The position numbers were made by a program, and so were the translations under genes. Of a DNA stretch of 64,000 bases, positions 12,318 through 61,026 are shown one piece after another. Origin of the DNA: an uncultured bacterium. Lineage in GTDB: Bacteria > Desulfobacterota > BSN033 > UBA1163. The stretch covers positions 312 through 64,311 of the forward strand of contig CALIBK010000006.1 of assembly GCA_938045955.1 (NCBI GenBank), given 5' to 3'. The notes beneath the pieces are model-generated. The model worked only from the letters and a program-made list of their open reading frames with translations, did not search any database and had not been told where the DNA came from. Within the stretch, counting starts at the first letter, position 1. Each line of letters starts with the position of its first letter.

Positions 12318-12405
12318 AATAATCCCTCCGTGAAGGAGAAGATGATTTTAAAGCCGGAAAGGGGTATTTCCGAATCCCTTAGAATGCGGATTGATTTAAT
12401 ACTAA
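12318..12405 (-). repeat. Interspersed repeat family C, copy 1 (reverse orientation)
   Basis: About 80% identical over about 80 bp to 48597-48690 and 57709-57805. Shared core ATCCGCGTTCTAAGGGTTTCGGAAATACCCCTTTAGGCC. Confidence 0.7.
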
Positions 12406-12426
12406 TATAAACGCATTAAATCGGAT

Positions 12427-12550
12427 GAAATGAATGCTTATTCTTGTCATTCCCGCGCAGGCGGGAATCCAGTTTTTTCAAAATGTTTCTGGATTCCTGA
12501 TAACGCAGGAATGACGGTGACTGTAACTTTTTTAATTTCCCTTGTATTAA
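12427..12550 (+). repeat. Interspersed repeat family A, copy 1: MITE/REP-like element made of two mutually inverted hairpins (GTCATTCCCGCGCAGGCGGGAATCCAG ... CTGGATTCCTGATAACGCAGGAATGAC).
   Basis: About 88% identical over about 122 bp to 58039-58160. Translates into the well-known spurious SFPRxRESS / VIPAxxGIQ / FRRNDG peptides (ORF 12447-12659 minus contains VIPALSGIQ). Confidence 0.8.
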
Positions 12551-35577: not shown

Positions 35578-36951
35578 TTACTCCAAACGCTCCACCAGTT
35601 CATCAGCCACCTGCCAGATATCCCCTGCTCCCAGGGTGATGACCATATCGCCAGGTTGAAGGATCTTGAGAAGATGCTCCACGATTTCCTTTTTTTCTGG
35701 AAGATAGGTAGCCTCGCGATGACCTGACTCCCGGATTCCCTCGTAGAGAGCCTTGGCCTCCACTCCTTCGATTCGTTCCTCTCCAGCTGGATAGATCTCC
35801 GTGAGAATAAGAATTTCTGCGTCATAGAAGGCCGTCAGGAATTCACGAAAGAGTGCTTTTGTCCGGGTATACCGATGGGGCTGGAACACCACAATCAGTC
35901 TCCTTTTCCATCCCGTCTTCGCTGCCTTTAGGGTAGCCATCACCTCCACAGGGTGATGTCCGTAATCATCCACCACCAGAATTCCCCTCTTTTCGCCTTT
36001 AATCTGAAAGCGTCTCTGGATTCCGCTGAATTCAGCCAGAGCCTCTTGGACGGTCTGAAAAGAGAGGTCCAGTTCGAAGGCGGCGGCCACCGTAGCTAAG
36101 GCATTATAAACATTATGGAGGCCTGGCATGCGAAGAGTTAATCTTCCTAACCTTCTCCTCTGAAATAGAACATCGAAAGAGGTAGAGAGTCCCTCAAATT
36201 CAATCTCTTCCGCCCTGAAATCTGCCTGGGCAGTCAATCCGTAGGTCGTAAATCTCTTTTTCAGTTTCGGGATGAGGCTTTGAATATTGGGATGATCGAG
36301 GCACACGATGGCCAGTCCAAAAAACGGAATCTTATGGATAAACTGAAGGAAGGTCTCCTTGATTTCCTCAATCCCTTTATAATAATCGAGATGATCTGCA
36401 TCAATGTTAGTGACCACTGCGATGGTTGGCATTAATTTTAAAAAAGAGCCATCACTCTCATCGGCCTCAGCCACCAAAAACTCCCCCTGACCGAGCCTTG
36501 CATTGCTTCCCAGACTGTTCAGTCTGCCTCCAATCACCACGGTAGGATCGAGTCCACCTGCAGCTAAGACAGTGGCAATGAGAGAGGTGGTCGTCGTCTT
36601 TCCATGGGTTCCTGCAATGGCAATCCCCACCTTCATCCGCATCAGTTCAGCGAGCATCTCAGCCCTGGGGATGATAGGGATGTGCCTCTCCTCAGCCGCT
36701 TCGACCTCCGGATTCCCGGGCCGGATGGCAGAAGAGACGACCAGGACATCGGCTTCTTTCACATTCTCTTTTCGATGGCCATAATAAATCTCACAGCCAA
36801 GGGATTGTAGCCTTCGAGTGACCTCCGTCTCTTTCAGGTCTGAACCACTGATGTGATAGCCTAAGTTGAGCAGGACCTCCGCAATCCCGCTCATCCCACT
36901 CCCTCCGATCCCCACAAAATGAATGTTTTTAATCTTTCCTTTCCTGTACAT
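35578..36951 (-). CDS. murC: UDP-N-acetylmuramate--L-alanine ligase MurC
   Basis: Mur-ligase motifs [11 protein letters not shown] and [10 protein letters not shown]. Confidence 0.95.
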
Positions 36952-36963
36952 TTCGGTAAAAAT

Positions 36964-38055
36964 TCAGCCTTTAGGATGCTGACGCTGAACGAGCTGATAA
37001 CAATGAGCTACAATCTCCTGAGCTGCCATCGGTCTTCCGAATCTGCGAATCGAAAACTCCATCTTTTCCCTTTCCTCCGGATGCTCATATAATTGGAGAA
37101 TGGCTTGAGAAAGGGTAGATCCGTTGAGGCATTCATCGCGAATCATTAAGGCGGCCCCTTTCTCCATGAGCCTCTGAGCATTGATGAACTGGTGTTGATG
37201 GGCTGAATAGGGATATGGAATAAGAATGGCGGCCTTTCCACAAACCGCCAATTCGGCAAGGGTGCTGGCTCCTGCTCGTGAGATGACGAGATCTGCCTTT
37301 TGATAGGCCAGGGCCATCTCCTGGATGAAAGGCGTCACTTCTGCCTCATACCCTCTCTCCCGATAACTCCTCTCCACATACTCCAGATCCTCTCTTCCCG
37401 TCTGATGGATCATTTTTATGAAGGGTTTCAATCTCTCAAGAGGTTCAAGGGCTTGGACCATCGCCACATTGATCCGATGCGCTCCTGCACTCCCACCAAA
37501 GATAAGAAGGGTGAATCGCTCCTCTTTTTTTCTGAGGGAACCCAAAGAGATCATCTCTTTTCGAATAGGATTTCCAGTCACAATCGTCTTCCTCCCGGGG
37601 AAATATCCCTTGGTCTCTTCAAAAGAGACAAAAATCCTGTGAACCCACCATTTCAAGAGTCGATTGGTTGCTCCTGGAATGATATTCTGTTCATGAATGG
37701 CACGGGGAAGCCCAAGAAGAGCAGCAGCCAAAAGAACGGGGCCGGAGGCATACCCTCCCACTCCGATGACCATCTCTGGCCGATACCTCTTCAAAATGGT
37801 ATAGGACTCTAAAATGGCCCTGGGGAGAAACGAGAAAGACTTCAACTTCTCCCCGAAAGACTTTCCTCGAATAGGCATGGCCGAAATGGTTCTCAAAGGA
37901 TATCTCCTATTCCCAAGCACCCTCTTCTCAATTCCTCTTTCCGTGCCCACAAAGAGAATCTCGTTGCCCTCCTCCCTTTCCAGAAAGGCCTCAGCGATCG
38001 CCATGGCTGGAAAGAGATGACCTCCTGTGCCTCCCCCTGCAATCACCCATCTCAT
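36964..38055 (-). CDS. murG: UDP-GlcNAc:undecaprenyl-PP-MurNAc-pentapeptide GlcNAc transferase MurG
   Basis: GT28 fold with N-terminal GGTGGHLFPA. Confidence 0.95.
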   Translation of the reverse strand: MRWVIAGGGTGGHLFPAMAIAEAFLEREEGNEILFVGTERGIEKRVLGNRRYPLRTISAMPIRGKSFGEKLKSFSFLPRAILESYTILKRYRPEMVIGVGGYASGPVLLAAALLGLPRAIHEQNIIPGATNRLLKWWVHRIFVSFEETKGYFPGRKTIVTGNPIRKEMISLGSLRKKEERFTLLIFGGSAGAHRINVAMVQALEPLERLKPFIKMIHQTGREDLEYVERSYRERGYEAEVTPFIQEMALAYQKADLVISRAGASTLAELAVCGKAAILIPYPYSAHQHQFINAQRLMEKGAALMIRDECLNGSTLSQAILQLYEHPEEREKMEFSIRRFGRPMAAQEIVAHCYQLVQRQHPKG

Positions 38056-39152
38056 CTACGCTCCGCGTAGGATGAGAGATGAAGAAGAATCCCCATTCCC
38101 ATTAAGTTTACAACCAACGAAGTCCCTCCATAACTGATAAAAGGAAGGGTCAATCCTTTCGTTGGGAGAAGACCTAACACGACCCCCATATTGATCACCG
38201 CTTGAAGAGAAATCATTAGCGTCACGCCTAAAGCGAGATAGCAGGCGAATCGTTCCTGAAGGGAAAGGGCGATTTGAATCCCTCTGAAAGCCAGGATAAA
38301 GAAGAGAAGAACCACTACCATCGCCCCTATCAATCCTAATTCCTCTCCAATAATGGAAAAAATAAAGTCCGTATGGGGGGCGGGAAGGAAGAAAAGTTTC
38401 TGCCTCCCTTCTCCAAGTCCCTGCCCAAAAAGACCTCCTGAACCAAAGGAAAGGAAAGATTGGATAATCTGGAAACTGCTTCCTTTAGGATCTTCCCAGG
38501 GCCGGATGAATCCCATCAACCTTTTATAACGATACTCAGCGCTCATGAGAAAGGTATAGACCAGTGGAATGGCGATCAAAAAGGCAGAGACCAGATAGAT
38601 CACCCTGGCCCCACTGATGAAGAGGAGGATAAATACGAGGATGATCAAGAAAAGGGCCGTTCCGAAATCGGGTTCCTTCAGAATGAGACCGATGAGGATC
38701 CCCGAAAAAAGGACCACAGGAAGAAATCCAAAGAAGAAGCTTCGAATCTTCTCCTCTTTCTTCGTCAGGAGATAGGCCAAGAAAATGACTAATCCCAGCT
38801 TTGCACATTCAGAAGGTTGAAAGGAGAATCCGCCCACTCGAATCCATCGCATCGATCCTCCGGCCCGATACCCAATCCCTGGAATAAGGACCACCATCAA
38901 TAAAAGGATAGAAACAAGGAAGATAGGATAGGCCAATCGTTTAAATCCCTCGTAAGGGAAAAAGATGAAGAGGGACATTAGCAAAATTCCAATCCCTGCA
39001 AAGAGGGCTTGTCGTTTAAGAAAATAGTAAGGGTCGCCAAACCGCTCGTTCGCAAGGATGGCACTGGTACTATAAACCATGACAATCCCGATGCTCACGA
39101 GCATCAAGGTCACAAACAGTAGAACGAGATCGACTCTCCTTTTCCCCTTCAT
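38052..39152 (-). CDS. ftsW: Peptidoglycan glycosyltransferase FtsW (SEDS family)
   Basis: 10-TM SEDS protein in the dcw position between murD and murG. Confidence 0.9.
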   Translation of the reverse strand: MKGKRRVDLVLLFVTLMLVSIGIVMVYSTSAILANERFGDPYYFLKRQALFAGIGILLMSLFIFFPYEGFKRLAYPIFLVSILLLMVVLIPGIGYRAGGSMRWIRVGGFSFQPSECAKLGLVIFLAYLLTKKEEKIRSFFFGFLPVVLFSGILIGLILKEPDFGTALFLIILVFILLFISGARVIYLVSAFLIAIPLVYTFLMSAEYRYKRLMGFIRPWEDPKGSSFQIIQSFLSFGSGGLFGQGLGEGRQKLFFLPAPHTDFIFSIIGEELGLIGAMVVVLLFFILAFRGIQIALSLQERFACYLALGVTLMISLQAVINMGVVLGLLPTKGLTLPFISYGGTSLVVNLMGMGILLHLSSYAERR

Positions 39153-39161
39153 TTTATTCCC

Positions 39162-40508
39162 TTATAACCGTCTCACCAATTCTTTAAAGATATTTCCTCT
39201 CTCCCGATAGTCTTTGAACATATCAAAACTCGAGCAGGCGGGTGAAAGGAGAACCACTTCCCCTGGCCTGGATGTTTGGTAAGCTAATGAAACAGCCTCC
39301 TCCAGACTCTCAGCCTTGAGGGTCTCTGTGAATGAACCTAACTCCTGAGCCATCCTTTCTCTGGCTTCTCCGATCAGGATCAACCGCTTCACTCGCTTCT
39401 GGATGAGATCTTTCAATGGGGAAAGGTCGGTCTTCTTATCCTTTCCACCGGCAATCAGGATCACCGGTTCTGAAAAGCTCTGGAGTGATTTCACGACTGA
39501 GCCAACATTGGTTCCTTTGGAGTCATTATAGAATCGGATTCCTCCGACCTCTCTCACAAATTCAAGGCGATGCTCTAATCCTTGGAACCTTTCAAGGGCT
39601 TTTTGAATCGTTCGTGGTGAACATCCGAAGAGCCTTGCCGCGAGAATCGCTGCCATCATATTCTCGATATTATGAACCCCTTTTAAGGGGACCTCCCTAA
39701 GGGAATATCGTTCTTCGAGAGAATTCATCCTCAGGACAATCTCCTCTCCATTAGAAAAGGCCCCCTCCTCTATGGCTTTACCCAAGGTAAAAAAAAGTTT
39801 TTTCCCGGAAATCTTATCCAAGGAACCCATTACGAGCGGATCATCTCGATTCAGGACCGCCCAATCTTCAATGGTTTGATTCTCAAAAATTCTAAGCTTA
39901 GCCTGGATATAAGCTTTAAAATTTGGATAACGATCGAGATGATCCTCTGTGATATTCAGGAGGACCGAACAGCGAGGTCGAAACCTCTCAATCCTTTCTA
40001 ACTGGAAACTGGAGATCTCAACGACCAGGACTTCCCATCGCTCTTTTCCATCAGCAAAAAGGATAAGGGGCTCTCCCACATTCCCGCCTATCCCCACTCG
40101 TTTTCCCTCCTCCTTGAGCATCTCTCCCGTAAGGAGCGTGGTCGTGGTTTTTCCGTTTGTTCCAGTGATCGCAATGAGGGGAGCCTCAAGAAAGTGGTAG
40201 GCGAGTTCGATCTCGCTGATCACGGGAATTCCTTTTTTTAAGGCCTTTTGAATCGGCTCAATACCCGGATCGACCCCCGGACTCAGGACGATCAAATCCT
40301 GTCGCAGGAAATGTTCAATCGAATGCCTTCCCCATTCTATCTCTATCTCCCAGGATCGTAATTCTTCCCATACCTCTCTCATCTCTTCCTTGGATCTTAT
40401 TTCTGAGGCACTCAAGAGTGACCCCTTTTCTTTAAGAAATTTCAGAGTGGCCAATCCTGTCCTGGCCAATCCGACTACCAGTACTTTTCTCCCACGAAGA
40501 TGGATCAT
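39162..40508 (-). CDS. murD: UDP-N-acetylmuramoylalanine--D-glutamate ligase MurD
   Basis: Mur-ligase motif GTNGKTTTT and MurD-specific N-terminal domain. Confidence 0.95.
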   Translation of the reverse strand: MIHLRGRKVLVVGLARTGLATLKFLKEKGSLLSASEIRSKEEMREVWEELRSWEIEIEWGRHSIEHFLRQDLIVLSPGVDPGIEPIQKALKKGIPVISEIELAYHFLEAPLIAITGTNGKTTTTLLTGEMLKEEGKRVGIGGNVGEPLILFADGKERWEVLVVEISSFQLERIERFRPRCSVLLNITEDHLDRYPNFKAYIQAKLRIFENQTIEDWAVLNRDDPLVMGSLDKISGKKLFFTLGKAIEEGAFSNGEEIVLRMNSLEERYSLREVPLKGVHNIENMMAAILAARLFGCSPRTIQKALERFQGLEHRLEFVREVGGIRFYNDSKGTNVGSVVKSLQSFSEPVILIAGGKDKKTDLSPLKDLIQKRVKRLILIGEARERMAQELGSFTETLKAESLEEAVSLAYQTSRPGEVVLLSPACSSFDMFKDYRERGNIFKELVRRL

Positions 40509-40520
40509 GTCGACCTTTTC

Positions 40521-41597
40521 TTATCTTAATTTCAGTGTACTAATGGCAATGAGCCCCAGGATGATCCCGATGATCCAGAATCGAACAATGATCTTAGGTT
40601 CGGCCCACCCTTTGAGTTCAAAATGATGATGAAGAGGGGCCATCCGAAACACCCTTTTCTTTCGAAGTTTATAGGAGATCACCTGCAGAATGACTGAAAG
40701 GGCTTCGATGACAAAGATTCCCCCTGTGATCACCAAAAGAAACTCCTGCTTGGTCACAAGGGCAATGGTTCCCAGGGAGGCCCCCAAAGCCAGAGAACCC
40801 ACATCCCCCATAAAGACCTGAGCAGGATAGGTATTAAACCAGAGGAAACCGAGCCCAGCTCCCACCAGCGCTCCACAGAGAATGGTCAACTCTCCACTCC
40901 CCCGAACAAAGGGAATCTGAAGGTAACTGGCAAATCGAAAATGGCCCGCAAGATAACAGAAGAGCATAAAGGTAGCACTCGTGATGAGAACCGGACCGAT
41001 GGCCAATCCATCCAATCCATCTGTGAGATTGACTGCATTGGCTGTCCCGACAATGACGAGCATCCCAAAAAGGATGTACCAATTCCCTAAATCCGGCATC
41101 ACCCTCTTGAAAAAAGGAAAGACTAATCGAGAATTATGATCCATCAAATGAAATAGAATGAAACTTGACGCCAGTCCCATGGCCACCTGGACAGGGAATT
41201 TATATCGAGCTCGAATTCCCAATCCATTCTTTTCTTTAATTTTTCTATAATCATCTAAAAAACCTAACCCCCCGAATCCCAAAGTGGTCAATAAAACGAT
41301 CCAGATATATCGATTGGTGAGGTCTACCCAGAGAAGGGTGGGGAGGAATAGAGCGGCCAAAATAATCCCTCCTCCCATCGTAGGGGTTCCGTTTTTGGAA
41401 AGGTGTCGAGAGGGAACATCGTCTCTCACGATCTGTTGAATTTGAAAGGCTTTCAACTTCTGGATGATCCATGGACCCATTACAAAACTAACGATAAGGG
41501 CTGTGAGAATGGCATAGATGGTCCGGAAGGTAATATATCGAAAGACATTAAAGAAAGTGAAATATTCATGAAGGGGATAAAGAAAATGATAAAGCAT
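40521..41597 (-). CDS. mraY: Phospho-N-acetylmuramoyl-pentapeptide transferase MraY
   Basis: Polytopic membrane protein with the conserved [13 protein letters not shown] and DD motifs. Confidence 0.95.
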
Positions 41598-41601
41598 CTT
41601 T

Positions 41602-42999
41602 TCAGCTCCTCCTTTGGATCAATCCCTCCACAATCTTTTCCATGGCCATACCCCTCGACCCTTTGACCAATATCCAATCCCCTTCACGGATCATCTGATC
41701 TAACCATAGGATGGCCTCTTCATGATCTTTAGCCGTAAAGGTCCTCTCCGGTTTCATTCCATGATGAATGGCTGAATCTTTGAGGATCCTTGTTTTTTCA
41801 CCAAAAGTGATAAGGAGGTCTATCTTTAACTCGGAAACTCTTCTTCCGATCCATCGATGAGCTTCCTCACCAAATTCTCCCAACTCCAGCATGTCCCCAA
41901 GGACAGCGATGCTCCTTCCTTCTCCCTTGATCTCGGCAAGCGTCTCCAACGCCATCTCCATCGACCTTGGATTGGCATTATAGGTGTCATTCAGGAGATG
42001 AATTTGGCCTGGAAGCTCCTTATATTCCATCCTCATGGGGAAGGGACGAAAATGCTCCAATGCCTCTTTCGCCTTCTCCAAGGGGATTCCAAAAAGAGTA
42101 GCCCCTGCAATTGCCGAGAGAGCATTCAGAACAAAATGCCTCCCCAATAAAGGAAGATGAATTTCCAATTCTTCTCCTTCCATCGAGACATGAAAATAGG
42201 TTCCCTCCTCCTTTAATTGAATCTCTTTCGCCATCACGTCTGAGGGGTTTTCAATCCCGTAAGAGATTTTCTGACCAAGGAAAGTCCGGGCGAGCTCCAC
42301 GACCAGAGGATCATCCTGATTGACCAGGATAGACCCATCCTGTCTCATCCTTCGAAAGAGTTCTCCCTTTTCCTCTTTAATCTTTTCGATACTCCTCATC
42401 CCTTCCAGATGAACGGGATGGATGTTCGTAATCAGGGCCACATCAGGCTCCGAAATCTCTGTCAATCTTCGAATCTCTCCGGGAACATTCATCCCCATCT
42501 CGAGGACGACAACCCTCTCCTTCTCTGTAAGATTTAAAAGGGTCAGGGGGAGTCCGATAAGATTATTGAGATTTCCTTCCGTTTTAAGAACGGGAAAGGT
42601 GGTCTTGAGGCAGGTGGCGATCATCTCCTTGGTGGTCGTCTTTCCATTACTACCGGTGATCGCTACGACCGGTGTTCGATACTTTCTCCTCCGCTCCCTT
42701 GCGAGATCCCCCAGTGCCCGTAGGGTATCCTCGACAGCGATGACCACTTTTGAAGGATCACCATTCCACGAAATCTCCCTCGCCTTCTCTTCCTCTACGA
42801 TCACTCCACCAGCCTTCTTCAGAGCTTCCAAAGCAAAGTCATGGCCATTGAATCGAGTTCCTTTGAGAGCAATGAAGAGCTCTTCTTCGAGGAGGGTTCT
42901 GGAATCCGTAGAGATTCCTCGAAAAAGAACTCCTTCTCTTTTCCCTTGTATAAGTCTTCCCCCTGTTGCCTTTAAAACCTCCTCAATCGTAAAAGTCAT
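41602..42999 (-). CDS. murF: UDP-MurNAc-tripeptide--D-alanyl-D-alanine ligase MurF
   Basis: [10 protein letters not shown]-loop and Mur-ligase C-terminal domain. Confidence 0.95.
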
Positions 43000-44576
43000 C
43001 CTTCCCCCAATGCCTTCTGAGCCTCTATGCGATCATCAAAAGGAAACCTCTCTTTTCCAATAATCTGATAGTTTTCATGTCCCTTTCCAGCGATTAAAAT
43101 GATATCGAAAGGAGAGGCTATCTGAATGGCCATTCGAATAGCCTCTCGTCGATCAGGAATAATAAGATATCCTCTGGTAAAGTTCCGAAGATCATTTTTA
43201 TGAGGATGGAGTTTTTTAACTCCAATTGAATGGAATCCCAACTCAGCCTCCTCGATAATGGCCAAAGGATCTTCTGTTCTTGGATTGTCGGAGGTCAGAA
43301 CGACCAAATCACTCAATCTTCCGGCCACCTCGGCCATGAGGGGACGTTTCACTCGATCCCTATCCCCTCCACAGCCAAAGACGGTGATCATCCTCCCTTT
43401 CGGCTCCGTTCGGGTATGAAGTTCTGTTAACGCAGTTAAAACCTGCTTTAGGGCATCGGGGGTATGGGCATAATCAACGAACACTCGAACACCCTTCGGA
43501 TTTTCAACCCTTTCCAATCTTCCTGGGACCCCCTTCACCTCTTCCAATCCTTCCCGAATCACCTCAAGGGAAAGGTCTGCTCCAATCCCCGTCGCCACAG
43601 CTGCCATAAGATTATAAAGATTAAATCTTCCAATCAGTTTGGAACGGAGGGGGAACTCCCCATGAGGGGTCTTGACCCGACAGGAGAGACCCTCAAAGGA
43701 AGCCATAACCTCCCGAACTGAGACCTCAGAGGAGGGATGAAATCCATAGCGAAGGACAGGCAAAGAGAGCCCTTCGATGATCTCCTCTCCCCTTGGATCG
43801 TCCCGGTTCGTCACAGCAAACCTCTTTGGCTTTTCACTCATCACCAGATATTCAGAGAAGAGCTTTCGTTTACTTTCAAAATATCGATCCAGTGTTTTAT
43901 GATAATCCAGATGCTCTGTTGAAAGGTTTGTAAAAACGACTCCATCAAATTGACACCCTCTCACTCGAGCCATCTCCAGGGCATGAGAGGAGACCTCAAG
44001 GATCACACAGCTGACCCCTTCCTTCCTCATCTCCCAGAGCATTCGTTGAAGATCCAATGACTCAGGAGTCGTATTGGGTGCTGGAAAGATCCGATTTTTA
44101 TACCGATAATTGATCGTTCCAATCACCCCCACGGTCTCCCCCGCTTTCTTGAAGATGGATTCTAAGAGATAGGTAATGGTCGTCTTTCCGTTGGTTCCCG
44201 TGATCCCGATAAGCCTGAATTGGGATGAGGGGTGCTCATAAAACTTAGAAGAAATTTCGGCCAGGGCCTCTCGAGTACTCCCCACCAAGATGGAAGTGAC
44301 GGAGGGAGGAAGAGAGACCGCGTCATCTTCCAGAAGAATTGCAATGGCTCCTCTTTGGACCGCTTCACCAATAAAGCGGTGTCCATCTCTCTCGAGTCCC
44401 CGGATAGCCACAAAGAGATAATCCTGTTTAACCTTATGAGAATGATAGGCAATTCCTTCAATCTCTCTGTCTCTCTCTCCGTTAATCTTTTTGATCCTTA
44501 ATCCCTCAAGCAATCTCATCAATTTCATGGTCTCATCATCAAAAAAGGTAACGGTTTTCCTGATAGGGTTATCCAC
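42996..44576 (-). CDS. murE: UDP-MurNAc-L-Ala-D-Glu--2,6-diaminopimelate ligase MurE
   Basis: GTNGKTTIT P-loop and the DNPR motif typical of meso-DAP-adding MurE. The N-terminal approximately 16 codons are uncertain; an internal MKLMRL start is possible. Confidence 0.9.
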   Translation of the reverse strand: MDNPIRKTVTFFDDETMKLMRLLEGLRIKKINGERDREIEGIAYHSHKVKQDYLFVAIRGLERDGHRFIGEAVQRGAIAILLEDDAVSLPPSVTSILVGSTREALAEISSKFYEHPSSQFRLIGITGTNGKTTITYLLESIFKKAGETVGVIGTINYRYKNRIFPAPNTTPESLDLQRMLWEMRKEGVSCVILEVSSHALEMARVRGCQFDGVVFTNLSTEHLDYHKTLDRYFESKRKLFSEYLVMSEKPKRFAVTNRDDPRGEEIIEGLSLPVLRYGFHPSSEVSVREVMASFEGLSCRVKTPHGEFPLRSKLIGRFNLYNLMAAVATGIGADLSLEVIREGLEEVKGVPGRLERVENPKGVRVFVDYAHTPDALKQVLTALTELHTRTEPKGRMITVFGCGGDRDRVKRPLMAEVAGRLSDLVVLTSDNPRTEDPLAIIEEAELGFHSIGVKKLHPHKNDLRNFTRGYLIIPDRREAIRMAIQIASPFDIILIAGKGHENYQIIGKERFPFDDRIEAQKALGEG

Positions 44577-48596: not shown

Positions 48597-48690
48597 ATTT
48601 TATCCTGAATCCCTTCGCGTTCTCAGGGTTTCGGAAATACCCCTTTCAGGCCAAAATGGCTCCTCTTTCTATAGATTGCAATCAGGGATT
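48597..48690 (+). repeat. Interspersed repeat family C, copy 2
   Basis: See 12318-12405. The same core CCTGAATCCCTTCGCGTTCTCAGGGTTTCGGAAATACCCCTTTCAGGCCAAAATGG plus a shared TTTCTATAGATTGCAAT tail. Confidence 0.7.
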
Positions 48691-56684: not shown

Positions 56685-57644
56685 TCATTGCTTAGGTTGA
56701 TTCACTGGATGAAGGGGTAATTTCCCTTCCAAAACACGAATCACATCCTCGGCCACCAAACTCATTCTTCTCAAGGCTTCTTCTGTATGGGCTGCCATAT
56801 GAGGAGTCCCGATAAAGTTATCCAATTCGAATAGAGGATTATCCTTCGGAGTCGGTTCGATCTCAAACACATCTGCCCCTGCCCCTGCAATCATTCCTTC
56901 TTTTAAGACTTTATATAAGGCTTTCTCATCCCAGATCGGGCCTCTCGCCAGATTAATAATATAAGCCGTAGGCTTCATTTTCATAAATTCTTCTTCTTTA
57001 ATGAGGTGCCTGGTTTCGGGAAGCATAGGGAGATTGATGGAGATAAAGTCAGACCTTCTCAAGAGCTCCTCCAGTCCCACTTTTTCTGCATGAATCTCTG
57101 CTTCCATCTCCTCGTATCGAATGGTATCGTAGTACAGGACTTTCATATCAAACCCTTTATAACCGGTTCGTCCAATAGCTTTTCCAATCCGGCCAAACCC
57201 TAAGATCCCTAATGTCTTTCCGTGAAGTTCATTCCCGATATATTCATACCTTGCCTGCCATCGCCCTTCCCGCAAGGCGATGTCCGCTTTTTTCAATTTT
57301 TTTGATAACATCAGGGTGAGTCCAAAGAAATGTTCTGCCACCGAAAGATCATTCGCCTCGGGGGTATTGACGACCCATATCCCCTTCTCTGTAGCTGCCT
57401 CGAGATCAATATTTTCTACCCCTACCCCATGTCTTCCGATGACTTTCAGTTTCGGCGCATGGTCGATGATCCTCCGAGTCACTTTTCCATTCGCTCGGAT
57501 AATAATCGCATCCACGCTTTTCACCTCATTGATCAATGAATCCTCTTCAATTGAGCTGGCGAAAACGATCTCCCCCTTCTCTCTCAGAAGGGACTTCCCT
57601 TCTTCATGAATCTCCTCATAGAGTAAAAATCTAAATTTTTTCAT
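56685..57644 (-). CDS. D-isomer-specific 2-hydroxyacid dehydrogenase (glycerate / hydroxypyruvate / phosphoglycerate dehydrogenase type)
   Basis: NAD Rossmann motif GILGFGRIGKAIG. Catalytic Arg/Glu/His triad region. Confidence 0.85.
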   Translation of the reverse strand: MKKFRFLLYEEIHEEGKSLLREKGEIVFASSIEEDSLINEVKSVDAIIIRANGKVTRRIIDHAPKLKVIGRHGVGVENIDLEAATEKGIWVVNTPEANDLSVAEHFFGLTLMLSKKLKKADIALREGRWQARYEYIGNELHGKTLGILGFGRIGKAIGRTGYKGFDMKVLYYDTIRYEEMEAEIHAEKVGLEELLRRSDFISINLPMLPETRHLIKEEEFMKMKPTAYIINLARGPIWDEKALYKVLKEGMIAGAGADVFEIEPTPKDNPLFELDNFIGTPHMAAHTEEALRRMSLVAEDVIRVLEGKLPLHPVNQPKQ

Positions 57645-57708
57645 ATTCCTCTCCTAAAAATATTTTTTTCTTTCTAACTTATATAGAATCCATTATTCTT
57701 GGCTGGGA

Positions 57709-57805
57709 AACAGGCCTGAATCCATCCGCGTTCTAAGGGTTTAGAAATACCCCCTTAGGCCAAAATGAATCCACTCCTTCAGGAGGATTTCTATAATTAC
57801 AATTT
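57709..57805 (+). repeat. Interspersed repeat family C, copy 3
   Basis: See 12318-12405. Ends in TTTCTATAATTACAAT, containing a TATAAT hexamer. Confidence 0.7.
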
Positions 57806-58038
57806 TTGTATATATTTTACTAAATCTTTTTTCAATTATTCTCAACATAACTTATCCACATAAGATCTTCATTAAGTCCTCTAAGATAGGGGGTTGATGA
57901 TATGTGGAAGATTTGCCTCTTTTTTGAGGTGTTCAAATGACTTAAGCTTTTTAAGAGTCGGATTGGCATGTTTTCGTTGGTATCCACGGTCGATACAGAA
58001 TTCATTGAGGATGAAGGTTTTATCTTTTCGTATCTGGG

Positions 58039-58160
58039 GAAATGAATGCTTATTTTTCATTCCCTCGCAGTCGGGAATCCAGTCTTTTCAAAATGTTTCT
58101 GGATTCCTGCTTCCGCAGGAATGACGGCAACTATAACTTTTTTAATTTCGTTTGTATTAA
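58039..58160 (+). repeat. Interspersed repeat family A, copy 2
   Basis: About 88% identical to 12427-12550 with the same two hairpins. Its 3' end TTGTAT serves as the -35 for the downstream gene. Confidence 0.8.
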
Positions 58161-58181
58161 TTCCCTGGCAGGTGCTATAAT
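58152..58181 (+). promoter_or_regulatory. Promoter of the nucleotidyltransferase gene: TTGTAT-N18-TATAAT, with an extended TGcTATAAT. About 6-nt leader (near-leaderless mRNA).
   Basis: Hexamers and spacing read directly. The -35 comes from the repeat terminus. Confidence 0.5.
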
Positions 58182-58194
58182 TTTTAAGACCAAA

Positions 58195-58767
58195 ATGAAT
58201 TCTCAAAGGATATTCGAAACTATAAAAAAAACGGAGTCTCCTCTCAAAAGGCAGCTTCTCATGGTGGGGTTAATCACTAAACTTCTCGAAGAGAAGGGAA
58301 AGAAAGCTCCCATCATTATTGGCGGATGTGCTTTATCTTATTATTCAAGAGAAGTTTACTTTACTTCAGATATAGATTTGGCTTATTCGGATAGAGAGGC
58401 ACTCGATGAAATTATGAGAGAAATCGGTTTCCAAAAGAGGGGTCGATATTGGATCCAGGAAGAATTGAAAATGGCTGTCGAGGCGCCAGCTTCTCAACTG
58501 GGTGAGGAACAGGCTCCTGTAGAGATTGTCGAAGTTGGGGAAGGGCTTCAATGTATCCTCATTGGGATAGAAGATCTCATCATCGATCGTATGAATGCCT
58601 GTAAGCATTGGAAGTCAGAGATCGATTGTGAAATGGTAGAACTCCTGCTAAACCATTATTATAATGAAATTGATTGGCCCTATCTTGAAGGGAAAGCACT
58701 CAAACCAGAAAATGATATTTTCCAGGAACTTCGAGAAATAAAGAATAAGATTCAGGAGAGAAGATGA
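58195..58767 (+). CDS. Pol-beta-superfamily nucleotidyltransferase (AbiEii / DUF1814-like minimal NTase core plus a helical C-terminal domain)
   Basis: hGG-x13-DhD motif IIIGGCALSYYSREVYFTSDIDLAY. Start moved to MNSQRIF because the first 51 codons of ORF 58042 are repeat-encoded (FSFPRSRESS...FRRNDG). Confidence 0.6.
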   Translation: MNSQRIFETIKKTESPLKRQLLMVGLITKLLEEKGKKAPIIIGGCALSYYSREVYFTSDIDLAYSDREALDEIMREIGFQKRGRYWIQEELKMAVEAPASQLGEEQAPVEIVEVGEGLQCILIGIEDLIIDRMNACKHWKSEIDCEMVELLLNHYYNEIDWPYLEGKALKPENDIFQELREIKNKIQERR

Positions 58768-58982
58768 GGGTAAAGAAATACGAGGAAAGGTCACCGGTAG
58801 ATTTTCTTCTTCTCAGGGAGAAACTCGGACTGAAGAGATACCGAAAGACGGCCAAAAGAGATGAAGAGAAAAGGGAGATTCTCTTGGAACTCGGCTTAAA
58901 GAAAATAAAAGAGAAAGAAAAAGGCGACTTTATTCCACTTGGCTACAGAAGAAGAAAAGTTAAAATTTTATCTGAAGAATAA
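58764..58982 (+). CDS. Small basic / charged protein (72 aa) translationally coupled (ATGA overlap) to the nucleotidyltransferase
   Basis: ORF overlaps the upstream stop by 4 nt. Lys/Arg/Glu-rich with no recognisable domain. Confidence 0.4.
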   Translation: MRVKKYEERSPVDFLLLREKLGLKRYRKTAKRDEEKREILLELGLKKIKEKEKGDFIPLGYRRRKVKILSEE

Positions 58983-59130
58983 ACCCTTTCAAAAATCTCT
59001 CGAATCTACGTTTTGAATGATCTTTCTGACTGATTGAATCATAATCTTTCCCTTAACTTAATGTTCGAAAGAGGAATTGCCTTATTGACCAAACCCCCTA
59101 AATTTGGTATTCATAAAAATAATAAATCTT

Positions 59131-61026
59131 ATGCCGTTTGGATATAATGGAAAGATATTAAGGGTTGATCTGGACAGGGGATCCATAAGCATTGAGGAAC
59201 CGGACGAAAACGTATATTGCCGCTATCTTGGAGGAGGAACGTTTGCCCTCTATTATCTATTGAAGGAATTCAAGCCGAAGTCTGATCCTCTCGGGCCAGA
59301 AAATATCCTCGTATTTATAGGCTCCGTCATCTCCGGGACACCTGCCGTGGGGTTAAGCCGTTTCTCTGCTGCAGCGAAATCCCCTTTGACTAATGCCTTC
59401 GGGGAAGCAGAGGCAGGCGGGTGGTGGATCCCCGAATTAAAGTTTGCAGGGTACGATGCCGTTATCATTAAGGGAAGGGCAAACCACCCGGTCTATCTCT
59501 GGATTCATGATGGTGAGGCCGAGATTAAGGATGCCCGCCATCTCTGGGGAAAGTTTACGAAAGAAACCCAGGAAGAGATTAGAAAGGAACTTCGAGATGA
59601 GCACATCCGAATCGCCTCGATCGGACCTGCTGGGGAGAAGTTAGTAAGGGTTGCCTGTATTCTGAACGAGCTCAAACATGCCAATGGCAGAACGGGTCTG
59701 GGCGCTGTGATGGGATCGAAGAACCTAAAGGCCATTGCAGTGAGAGGGAACAAGCGAATGGAGGTAGCCGATGAAGAAGCGGTAAGGAGAATAACGAAAT
59801 GGCTGAGAGATACTTATGAAGAACCTTACTTTAGCATAGGGAATCTCGGGACAGCCCGTGTTACGGTAATGCTGAGTGAGCAGGGTATTCTTCCTACCTT
59901 TAATTTTAGACAGGGTTCATTCGAAGGGGCTGAGGCCATCAGTGGCGAGACCATGTCCAAAACGATTCTGGTTCGCAGAGGAACATGCTATGGGTGCTTC
60001 ATCAGGTGCAAAAGGGAGGTCCGTGTTACGGAACCTTATCTGGTGGACCCAATCTATGGAGGACCTGAATATGAGACGGTGGCCGCCTTTGGCTCTATGT
60101 GTGGCATAGACAACTTAAAAGCCATCTCCTGGGCGAATCAACTCTGTAATGCCTATGGCCTTGATACTATTTCAACGGGAGGCCTCATCTCTTTTGCCAT
60201 GGAGTGTTACGAGAACGATATCCTCAAGAGCACCGATACGGGCGGACTCGACCTTCGCTTCGGCAATGTGGAAGCTATGATCAAAATGGTCGAAATGATC
60301 GGAAAACGTGAAGGCTTAGGGGATCTTCTCGCCGATGGAATGTCCTTGGCAGCAAGGAAACTTGGTAAAGGGGCTGAAGGCTTTGCAATGCATGTCAAAG
60401 GAATGCCTCTTCCCTTCCATGAACCAAGAGGAAAGGTTGGAGTGGGGATCGGTTACGCTGTATCTCCAACTGGGCCTGATCATATGGAATTTCCACACGA
60501 TCCTTTTTGGGCGACCGATGCCGGCATCTCTCTTCTCAGACCTTTGGGAATTCTTGAGCCTGTCGATGTTTTTGACCTTGGACCAAAGAAGGTGAGGCTC
60601 TTCGTCTATCTTCAGCAATACTGGGATCTCCTTAACTCCCTGGGAATCTGTATGTTTACAGCAAAACCCTTTGGACCCCATACCTTCAATGAAATCGTTG
60701 ATTATGTGAAGGCAGTCACTGGATGGGAGACAAGCCTCTTTGATCTTTTAAAAGTTGGAGAGAGACACGCAAATATGGCGAGAATCTTTAATCTTCGGGA
60801 AGGCCTTACGTCAAAAGATGACATCCTTCCAGAGCGATTATTTCAACCGATGGAGGGAGGTACACTAAAAGGAAAGAAGATAGACCAGGAAGAGTTCTTG
60901 AAGGCCATAAAAACGTATTATCAAATGATGGGCTGGGATCCTGAATCCGGTGTTCCTAAAAAAGAAAAATTGGCCGAATTGGATCTCGATTGGCTCATCG
61001 ATTATGCCCCTTCCCTTTTTTCTTAA
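59131..61026 (+). CDS. aor: Tungsten-containing aldehyde:ferredoxin oxidoreductase (AOR family)
   Basis: N-terminus MPFGYNGKILRVDL, the AOR N-domain, and 4Fe-4S/pterin ligand region (E...H, CxxC...C: RGTCYGCFIRC). ATG at 59131 preferred over the TTG at 59104. Confidence 0.85.
   Translation: MPFGYNGKILRVDLDRGSISIEEPDENVYCRYLGGGTFALYYLLKEFKPKSDPLGPENILVFIGSVISGTPAVGLSRFSAAAKSPLTNAFGEAEAGGWWIPELKFAGYDAVIIKGRANHPVYLWIHDGEAEIKDARHLWGKFTKETQEEIRKELRDEHIRIASIGPAGEKLVRVACILNELKHANGRTGLGAVMGSKNLKAIAVRGNKRMEVADEEAVRRITKWLRDTYEEPYFSIGNLGTARVTVMLSEQGILPTFNFRQGSFEGAEAISGETMSKTILVRRGTCYGCFIRCKREVRVTEPYLVDPIYGGPEYETVAAFGSMCGIDNLKAISWANQLCNAYGLDTISTGGLISFAMECYENDILKSTDTGGLDLRFGNVEAMIKMVEMIGKREGLGDLLADGMSLAARKLGKGAEGFAMHVKGMPLPFHEPRGKVGVGIGYAVSPTGPDHMEFPHDPFWATDAGISLLRPLGILEPVDVFDLGPKKVRLFVYLQQYWDLLNSLGICMFTAKPFGPHTFNEIVDYVKAVTGWETSLFDLLKVGERHANMARIFNLREGLTSKDDILPERLFQPMEGGTLKGKKIDQEEFLKAIKTYYQMMGWDPESGVPKKEKLAELDLDWLIDYAPSLFS

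Follow-up and report, generated by a model that had tools for sequence, protein, structure and literature searches.

A conserved cassette pairing a peripheral DUF6036 nucleotidyltransferase with a small basic protein, a candidate toxin-antitoxin system of uncultured anaerobic bacteria

The subject of this study is a two-gene cassette within contig CALIBK010000006.1 of assembly GCA_938045955.1, which derives from an uncultured bacterium of the Desulfobacterota; 64,000 nucleotides of this contig were analyzed, and this whole stretch is referred to as the window, with positions numbered from its first nucleotide. The first gene of the cassette (58195..58767, forward strand) begins with an ATG at 58195, terminates with a TGA ending at 58767, and encodes a 190-residue nucleotidyltransferase (NTase) with a Pol-beta fold that belongs to the DUF6036 family. 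The second gene (58764..58982, forward strand) encodes a 72-residue basic protein rich in lysine, arginine and glutamate, the obligate partner of the NTase and a member of an orphan family. The two genes overlap by four nucleotides in the sequence ATGA (58764-58767), with the ATG of the small gene sharing three bases with the NTase stop codon, and a GGAG Shine-Dalgarno (SD)-like core (58755..58758, forward strand) lies within the NTase coding sequence, 5 nucleotides 5' of the small-gene ATG. A preliminary description of this DNA, made from its letters, had proposed both reading frames and their ATGA overlap, and these are borne out by the open reading frames (ORFs) themselves, by their homologues, and by substitutions at the different codon positions. 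In pairwise comparisons, the latter amounted to 0.35/0.25/0.61 for the small gene and 0.27/0.18/0.59 for the NTase gene, and the excess at the third codon position indicates that both genes are under purifying selection as proteins. Both ORFs are also far above chance, as a protein collection contains 838 homologues of the NTase (67-81% identity for the best 120) and 386 homologues of the small protein (75-100% identity for the best 120).

The start codon of the NTase gene differs from that in the public record of the same species (99% DNA identity; locus L091, 9279-10004), in which the enzyme is annotated as a 241-residue protein. This alternative ORF starts at 58042 and passes through an intergenic repeat, termed repeat A. 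The 241-residue form was rejected as the true gene, as homologues of the NTase align from the methionine at 58195 and the extension (58042-58194) is unconserved and located within the repeat. Because no homologue conserves the N-terminal extension, the start codon of the annotated protein is probably mis-called. Comparable N-terminal extensions are present in several database entries (P0008, P0025 and P0065).

To define the distribution of the cassette, a collection in which each of 185,579 species is represented by a single genome was scanned, which revealed 95 stretches encoding a relative of the NTase; the locus counts given below rest on the best 80 of these 95. The 80 loci reside in metagenome-assembled genomes (MAGs) of the Thermodesulfobacteriota/Syntrophaceae, Nitrospirota, Aminicenantes/Acidobacteriota, Geobacteraceae, Thermoleophilia and others, which represent at least five phyla of uncultured anaerobes from sediment and groundwater, and their NTases are 57-76% identical to the window protein. 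A tblastn search located the small gene directly 3' of the NTase gene in 77 of the 80 loci, and two of the three exceptions carry high-GC versions of the small gene that also overlap the NTase stop codon by 4 nucleotides. The recurrence of an NTase with a basic partner of about 70 residues, which the preliminary description had suggested looking for, is therefore seen in 79 of 80 species loci, and the remaining locus is cut by the end of its contig. The 4-nucleotide overlap is retained in 65 of 78 loci, and the divergences of the two proteins are correlated (r=0.62). The genes that flank the cassette differ in nearly all genomes, and no third gene proved to be conserved when its neighbors were searched for one; such neighbor clusters as do recur belong to large families of paralogues (ABC ATPases, sigma-54 response regulators, TPR proteins and tyrosyl-tRNA synthetase). 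In the homologous loci, there is no conservation 3' of the small-gene stop codon, nor was a terminator or other 3' element found there. As conservation starts at the -35 box of the promoter and ends at this stop codon, the conserved unit is approximately 0.85 kb in length. The combination of 57-76% identity across phyla with unrelated flanks argues for repeated horizontal transfer of the bare cassette together with its own promoter. At the level of sequence, the pair thus behaves as an autonomous, horizontally spread bicistronic cassette that recurs almost unchanged in unrelated anaerobic bacteria.

The promoter that delimits the cassette consists of a -35-like hexamer, TTGTAT (58152..58157, forward strand), and an extended -10 element, TGCTATAAT (58173..58181, forward strand), both of which were read from the sequence and had been named in the preliminary description. 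The hexamer corresponds to the conserved CTTGT box of the cassette and agrees with TTGACA at only 3 of 6 positions, which explains why the promoter was not listed by a consensus scanner. In the window, the spacer is 18 nucleotides and the -10 element ends 13 nucleotides 5' of the NTase ATG, which predicts a leader of 5-7 nucleotides and agrees with the nearly leaderless mRNA that had been anticipated. How well this arrangement is kept was judged from the DNA upstream of 69 homologous, non-redundant loci. TTG is found at the -35 position in 65 of the 69 loci, an extended -10 element (TGnTAnnAT) in 63, a spacing of 17 nucleotides between the two in 62, and a -10 element that ends only 6-8 nucleotides before the start codon in 56. 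The resulting family consensus is CTTGTa.taa-N6-agAgTTGtTAT.AT, which corresponds to the layout CTTGT, 17 nucleotides, TGnTATnAT, 6-8 nucleotides and ATG; upstream of its first C the aligned homologous loci show zero conservation. An SD-like motif precedes the NTase start codon in 5 of 70 loci. Ahead of the start codon of the small gene, a purine-rich SD-like motif is present in 60 of 70, a count that is inflated by the Lys/Glu-rich coding sequence. These features predict a sigma-70-type promoter that gives rise to a leaderless bicistronic mRNA (near-leaderless in the window). The -35 box lies within the last 9 nucleotides of the upstream copy of repeat A, and the promoter had been described as built from this repeat. 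That description is not the most fitting one, as the conserved promoter occurs in at least 60 other genomes that lack the 129-nucleotide repeat A upstream of the cassette; since the -35 box is kept in these genomes, the promoter belongs to the cassette and not to the repeat.

By its sequence, the NTase is a borderline, peripheral member of the DUF6036 family (Pfam PF19502), which it matches over residues 27-171 with a score of 24.3 bits (cut-off 23.6, E=3e-5). The assignment is shared by its relatives, as 23 of 23 aligned NTase homologues match DUF6036 (best E 5.5e-7) and 14 of the 23 also match DUF2204 (PF09970) weakly. Sub-threshold Pfam matches of the window protein are to DUF2204, NTP_transf_5 and AbiEii (DUF1814, PF08843). 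The enzyme had been likened to AbiEii/DUF1814 and MNT-type NTases, and its assignment to DUF6036 replaces this view: the AbiEii score is 12.9 bits (cut-off 22.5, E=0.11), 0 of the 23 homologues reach AbiEii at E<=0.01, and the only PADLOC match, also to AbiEii, is sub-threshold (E=0.0085, 13.4 bits). An NCBIfam search returned nothing meaningful for the NTase, and a literature search for DUF6036 and PF19502 found no mention of them and no function.

The catalytic motif of the NTase is GG-x14-DID, formed by G43-G44 and T57-S-D59-I-D61, and not GG-x13-DID as had been reported. Conservation in at least 97% of 62 sequences is seen for G43, T57, D59, D61, E96, E110, K137 and D144. Members of the Pol-beta superfamily are defined by the pattern hG[GS]-x9-14-DhDh, together with a third carboxylate on a later strand and an alpha-beta-alpha-beta-alpha-beta core. 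In the NTase, G43-G44-x14-D59-I-D61 conforms to this pattern, E96 and E110 are located on later strands, and the order of secondary structure elements in the AlphaFold2 model fits this core. The segment T57-S-D59-I-D61 also conforms to the [ST]-x-D-x-D active site of AbiEii/MenT toxins, and as judged from these residues the active site is intact. The protein is acidic (pI 4.96; family median 4.88), and its AlphaFold2 model (pLDDT 78.8) contains the NTase sheet followed by four C-terminal helices; the enzyme had been called minimal, a term that does not suit a 190-residue protein with a four-helix C-terminal domain. A Foldseek comparison, one of the checks proposed beforehand, gave a divided answer: the model resembles MenT1 and the aminoglycoside nucleotidyltransferase ANT(2'')-Ia weakly, and no match to the Protein Data Bank (PDB) falls below an E value of 1e-3. 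The top match is MenT1 (8an5/8an4; probability 0.96-0.97, best E 4.5e-3, TM score 0.33-0.38), ANT(2'')-Ia gives the highest TM score (0.40-0.45; probability 0.99, 15-20% identity), and JHP933 and TglT/MenT3 appear further down the list. No viral structure was matched below E 1e-3.

The small protein measures 70-74 residues across its family and is strongly basic, with a pI of 10.0 (family median 10.2) versus 4.96 for the NTase. No match to it was found in Pfam, NCBIfam, PADLOC, PHROGs or the PDB, and a profile search of 1.84 billion representatives retrieved only 62 relatives. All of these are short, stand-alone proteins, except for a few frameshift or read-through fusions to the C-terminus of the NTase (e.g. 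P0298 and P0295). Among its residues, S10, K28 and R32 are 100% conserved and Y26 is 97% conserved. The protein contains zero histidine residues and therefore lacks the HEPN Rx4-6H motif, and Pfam returned no HEPN family match. The AlphaFold2 model places helices at residues 11-20 and 34-53 between disordered ends, with a pLDDT of 54 that makes it unusable for a fold search. The earlier proposal that the partner is neither a HEPN nor an AbiEi protein agrees with the missing histidine, the absence of a family match and the two predicted helices. The small protein is an obligate, co-evolving, strongly basic partner of the NTase that is predicted to be helical.

More distant relatives of the NTase (27-35% identity) are present on five plasmids, three of which were examined (loci L088 2450-3281, L089 2468-3173 and L090 2094-2956; NTase identity approximately 34%). 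On plasmid pDVUL01 of Nitratidesulfovibrio vulgaris, the NTase relative is followed by a 78-residue basic ORF. The relative on a Croceicoccus plasmid precedes and overlaps a 60-residue basic ORF and is located amid HipA, Xre-type and ParD toxin-antitoxin (TA) genes. On a Sulfurospirillum plasmid, an overlapping winged helix-turn-helix (wHTH) gene is instead positioned upstream of the NTase relative, and transposase genes are adjacent. Across distant relatives, the NTase appears to exchange partners. A search for phage homologues found none.

Several positional details of the chromosomal cassettes were noted. A 2-hydroxyacid dehydrogenase gene and an aldehyde:ferredoxin oxidoreductase gene recur near the cassette in related genomes, and its placement with respect to them takes three forms: between the two in the window (56685-61026), outside them in L010 (3052-7206), and after the oxidoreductase gene in L008 (1108-3952), which suggests local relocation. 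A tyrosyl-tRNA synthetase gene adjoins the cassette in five Nitrospirota loci (L015 4380-5591, L039, L042, L043 and L064), an adjacency that probably reflects shared ancestry and not a functional link. In a 'Deltaproteobacteria' MAG from Lake Tanganyika (L001 6056-7241), a BrnT-toxin gene with an overlapping 88-residue gene is located directly upstream of the cassette, as is an unannotated divergent 183-residue gene.

To gain insight into what the pair might do, it was compared with characterized two-gene systems that contain an NTase. The closest parallel is MenAT1 of Mycobacterium tuberculosis (Rv0078B-Rv0078A), in which a two-domain NTase of approximately 190 residues is combined with a helical partner of about 70 residues that lacks a DNA-binding domain, and whose two genes overlap by 4 nucleotides, as they do here. 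MenT1 is blocked by MenA1, an antitoxin of 68 residues and two helices that has no DNA-binding domain (PMC10435456). The active site of MenT1 contains T39-x-D41-x-D43, in which T39 is the phospho-acceptor in auto-phosphorylation (PMC11375011), and the T-x-D-x-D motif with its conserved threonine is present in the window enzyme, for which MenT1 is also the top structural match, albeit a weak one that ANT(2'')-Ia equals. The systems differ in that the window NTase belongs to DUF6036 as compared to DUF1814, is acidic, and is expressed from a conserved promoter that is predicted to yield a leaderless mRNA. AbiE (AbiEi-AbiEii), a type IV TA and abortive infection system, likewise combines a Pol-beta NTase carrying a C-terminal helical domain with a second gene in an operon, and AbiEii is weakly matched by profile; however, AbiEi is encoded upstream and carries an N-terminal wHTH and a C-terminal COG5340 domain, and the partner described here is encoded downstream and is a 72-residue protein with two predicted helices and not a wHTH/COG5340 protein, the AbiEii score is below its cut-off, and no defence-island context was found among the immediate neighbors. 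In HepT-MntA (HEPN-MNT, type VII), the NTase gene also comes first and is overlapped by its partner gene, and a mechanism in which the NTase modifies its partner can be envisaged. In contrast to HepT, the small protein has neither a HEPN fold, an Rx4-6H motif nor any histidine, and the 190-residue NTase with its four-helix C-terminal domain differs from a minimal MNT protein (approximately 100-140 residues, NTP_transf_2-like). Of the two NTase families that its relatives match, DUF6036 and DUF2204, the enzyme belongs peripherally to DUF6036, whose definition makes no mention of an obligate small partner. ANT(2'')-Ia resembles the NTase in size, two-domain architecture and acidic character, but shares only 18-20% identity with it and has another genetic context. 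By the features tested, the pair is outside AbiE, MenAT and HEPN-MNT, and constitutes a clade at the periphery of DUF6036 whose partner family is new.

The reading that we favor, and hold tentatively, is that the cassette could be a MenAT1/AbiE-like TA pair in which the gene order is reversed; it is plausible but somewhat short of probable. In this model, the NTase would be a growth-arresting enzyme, which would probably add nucleotides to the 3' end of RNA, for example the acceptor end of tRNA. The small protein would neutralize it by binding to it directly, by way of charge complementarity and its two amphipathic helices, and might further bring about inhibitory auto-phosphorylation at the invariant Thr57, comparable to the effect of MenA1 on Thr39 of MenT1. 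A leaderless first gene combined with an SD-preceded, translationally coupled second gene may favor an excess of the small protein. The cassette displays the generic features of a TA module as far as sequences disclose them, namely two small coupled genes, a patchy distribution, variable contexts and horizontal mobility. The preliminary description had also proposed a tightly coupled TA-type module, and this proposal is consistent with the near-universal pairing, the retained overlap, the unrelated contexts, and the plasmid relatives amid HipA and ParD genes.

A number of observations weigh against this reading. The order of the genes is the reverse of that in both MenAT1 and AbiE, and neither protein has sequence-level similarity to its MenAT1 counterpart: a profile of the NTase homologues did not retrieve any relative, not even MenT1, from the PDB chain sequences, and a profile of the small protein found none among PDB chains even at E<=10 with 8an5 present in the library. 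The structural resemblance to MenT1 is weak and is equalled by that to ANT(2'')-Ia, the AbiEii profile score is below its threshold, and the two helices of the small protein come from a low-confidence model. The acidic character of the NTase is unusual for an RNA-binding enzyme, and conservation as high as that seen here is atypical of antitoxins. When the small-protein profile was aligned by hhalign to the small ORFs that follow the plasmid NTases, no homology was detected. Genomic context points in the same direction. The 136 immediate neighbors of the cassette are heterogeneous and mostly housekeeping genes (TPR proteins, ABC ATPases, tyrosyl-tRNA synthetase and metabolic enzymes), defence or mobile-element genes are not enriched among them, and their PADLOC matches are to generic kinase or ATPase domains only. 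The defence-type association that had been suggested is thus not supported by the immediate neighbors, nor is any known defence model matched beyond the sub-threshold AbiEii score. Finally, at the sensitivity of the search pattern, each MAG yielded only one locus.

In an alternative reading, the roles of the two proteins would be reversed, as in a type VII HepT/MntA-like system. The small basic protein would then be the effector or toxin, for example a nucleic-acid or ribosome binder, and the NTase would sequester it and/or nucleotidylate it at S10 or Y26. In type VII MntA-HepT modules the NTase gene comes first and its end overlaps the start of the partner gene, which is the arrangement seen here. 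An acidic NTase resembles enzymes that bind polycationic substrates, and it is ANT(2'')-Ia that gives the highest TM score; the partner is polycationic (pI approximately 10), with S10, Y26, K28 and R32 conserved. Among the closest homologues, the small protein is the more conserved of the two (88-93%, as compared to 73-81% for the NTase), but averaged over all loci this relationship is inverted (0.66 for the NTase and 0.56 for the small protein). The partner moreover lacks the histidine-containing HEPN motif, is predicted to be helical and partly disordered with no known toxin fold, and acts alongside an NTase that has a C-terminal helical domain like MenT, AbiEii and ANT enzymes and no NTP_transf_2 match, and is thus not a minimal MNT protein. 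The partner of one distant relative is, in addition, a wHTH gene located upstream, an arrangement shared with NTase toxins. We consider such a reversal of roles unlikely. A more specific version, in which the acidic NTase nucleotidylates its own polycationic partner at the invariant Ser10/Tyr26 and thereby switches a small nucleic-acid-binding effector on or off, would involve a non-HEPN partner fold and a unit that spreads between phyla from promoter to stop codon; we judge it to be decidedly unlikely.

The opposite charges of the proteins could also mean that they form a non-toxic, two-subunit enzyme, whose basic subunit brings a nucleic acid or other anionic substrate to the acidic NTase, and which would provide an accessory RNA-tailing or RNA-modifying activity in bacteria of anoxic sediment. 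Strict 1:1 co-occurrence, translational coupling and strong purifying selection on both proteins would be expected of such an enzyme, and the single locus found per MAG, the housekeeping neighbors without defence genes, and a neighborhood that is loosely kept within one clade are in line with it. It is harder to reconcile with the very patchy distribution of the cassette (95 stretches among 185,579 species genomes), with the repeated horizontal transfer indicated by cross-phylum identity and unrelated flanks, and with the distant plasmid relatives that reside beside other TA modules, and it seems to us an improbable account. A third possibility is an ANT-like enzyme that transfers nucleotides to a small molecule (an antibiotic or metabolite) and is regulated by the small protein. 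ANT(2'')-Ia is among the best fold matches (TM score 0.40-0.45, probability 0.99), is of the same size (175-185 residues), and is acidic as well; this resemblance, however, is confined to the fold, as identity is 15-20% and E exceeds 1e-3. To our knowledge, no partner protein has been described for ANT enzymes, ANT(2'')-Ia included, let alone an obligate small one, resistance genes are characterized neither by a coupled basic partner that is obligate nor by an autonomous, leaderless cassette, and the hosts are uncultured anaerobes of sediment and groundwater. An ANT-like function is therefore very improbable.

Whichever function applies, the cassette gives precise definition to one clade of the DUF6036 NTases, a family with no assigned function and no literature. 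This clade is distinguished by an invariant two-gene architecture, an orphan partner family of which 1.84 billion proteins include about 62 representatives, a conserved promoter predicted to yield a leaderless mRNA, and sharp boundaries. The conservation of the cassette from promoter to stop codon across phyla cleanly illustrates the way in which a minimal module, selfish or accessory, may travel. If the cassette is indeed a TA system, NTase toxins of the MenT/AbiEii type would gain a further Pfam family, in which the order of the genes is reversed and the antitoxin is novel, and the compact 0.85-kb unit could be used to ask whether antitoxin-induced auto-phosphorylation of an active-site threonine is general. 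The analysis also flags a recurrent mis-annotation of start codons that is caused by an upstream repeat.

The DNA upstream of the cassette contains two intergenic repeats, as the preliminary description had stated. The copy of repeat A at 58032..58160 contains a palindrome, is 89% identical to 12420-12550, and lies outside the conserved cassette except where its last 9 nucleotides overlap the -35 box; as DNA it folds with an energy of -16.1 kcal/mol (z = -2.9). The alignment of repeat A ends at TTGTATTAA. Both copies terminate in (C)TTGTATTAA, which corresponds to the -35 consensus of the cassette, and no cassette is present downstream of the copy at 12.5 kb. From the two copies compared, repeat A may carry TTGTATTAA as its native end, may have taken the place of the original box, or may have been duplicated along with it. 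The 129-nucleotide repeat was not found upstream of the cassettes of other species; what does occur is merely its palindromic core of approximately 30 nucleotides, about 200 nucleotides upstream of the NTase gene in L015. This core, TCATTCCCGCGCAGGCGGGAATCCAG, also occurs in unrelated genomes and metagenomes (L015 5769-5803, L054 8765-8793, L059 3278-3305, L096 and L103), and the full unit of approximately 130 nucleotides was found in this species only. Of the metagenome scans for further copies of repeat A, one found none and the other found only the generic palindromic core at unrelated loci.

The second repeat, family C, is approximately 45-55 nucleotides in length and is present in three copies (12353-12396, 48604-48658 and 57715-57767). 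The copy at 57715..57767, which provides context outside the cassette, is 87% identical to that at 48604-48658, and 12353-12396 and 48608-48651 form a related inverted pair. At the 12.4-kb site, as at the 57.7-kb site, repeat A has a family C copy directly before it, and the two repeats may travel as a composite. The spacer between them upstream of the cassette (57770-58035) contains minus-strand ORF fragments of 57 and 59 residues, which have no family match and no relative beyond this species. Rfam and tRNA scans of the window returned no match. On the minus strand at 36591-44205, a 29-nucleotide 'repeat' is present in five copies that translate to an ITGSNGKTT-type P-loop; paralogous Mur-ligase genes, and not a repeat element at the DNA level, are its most likely source.

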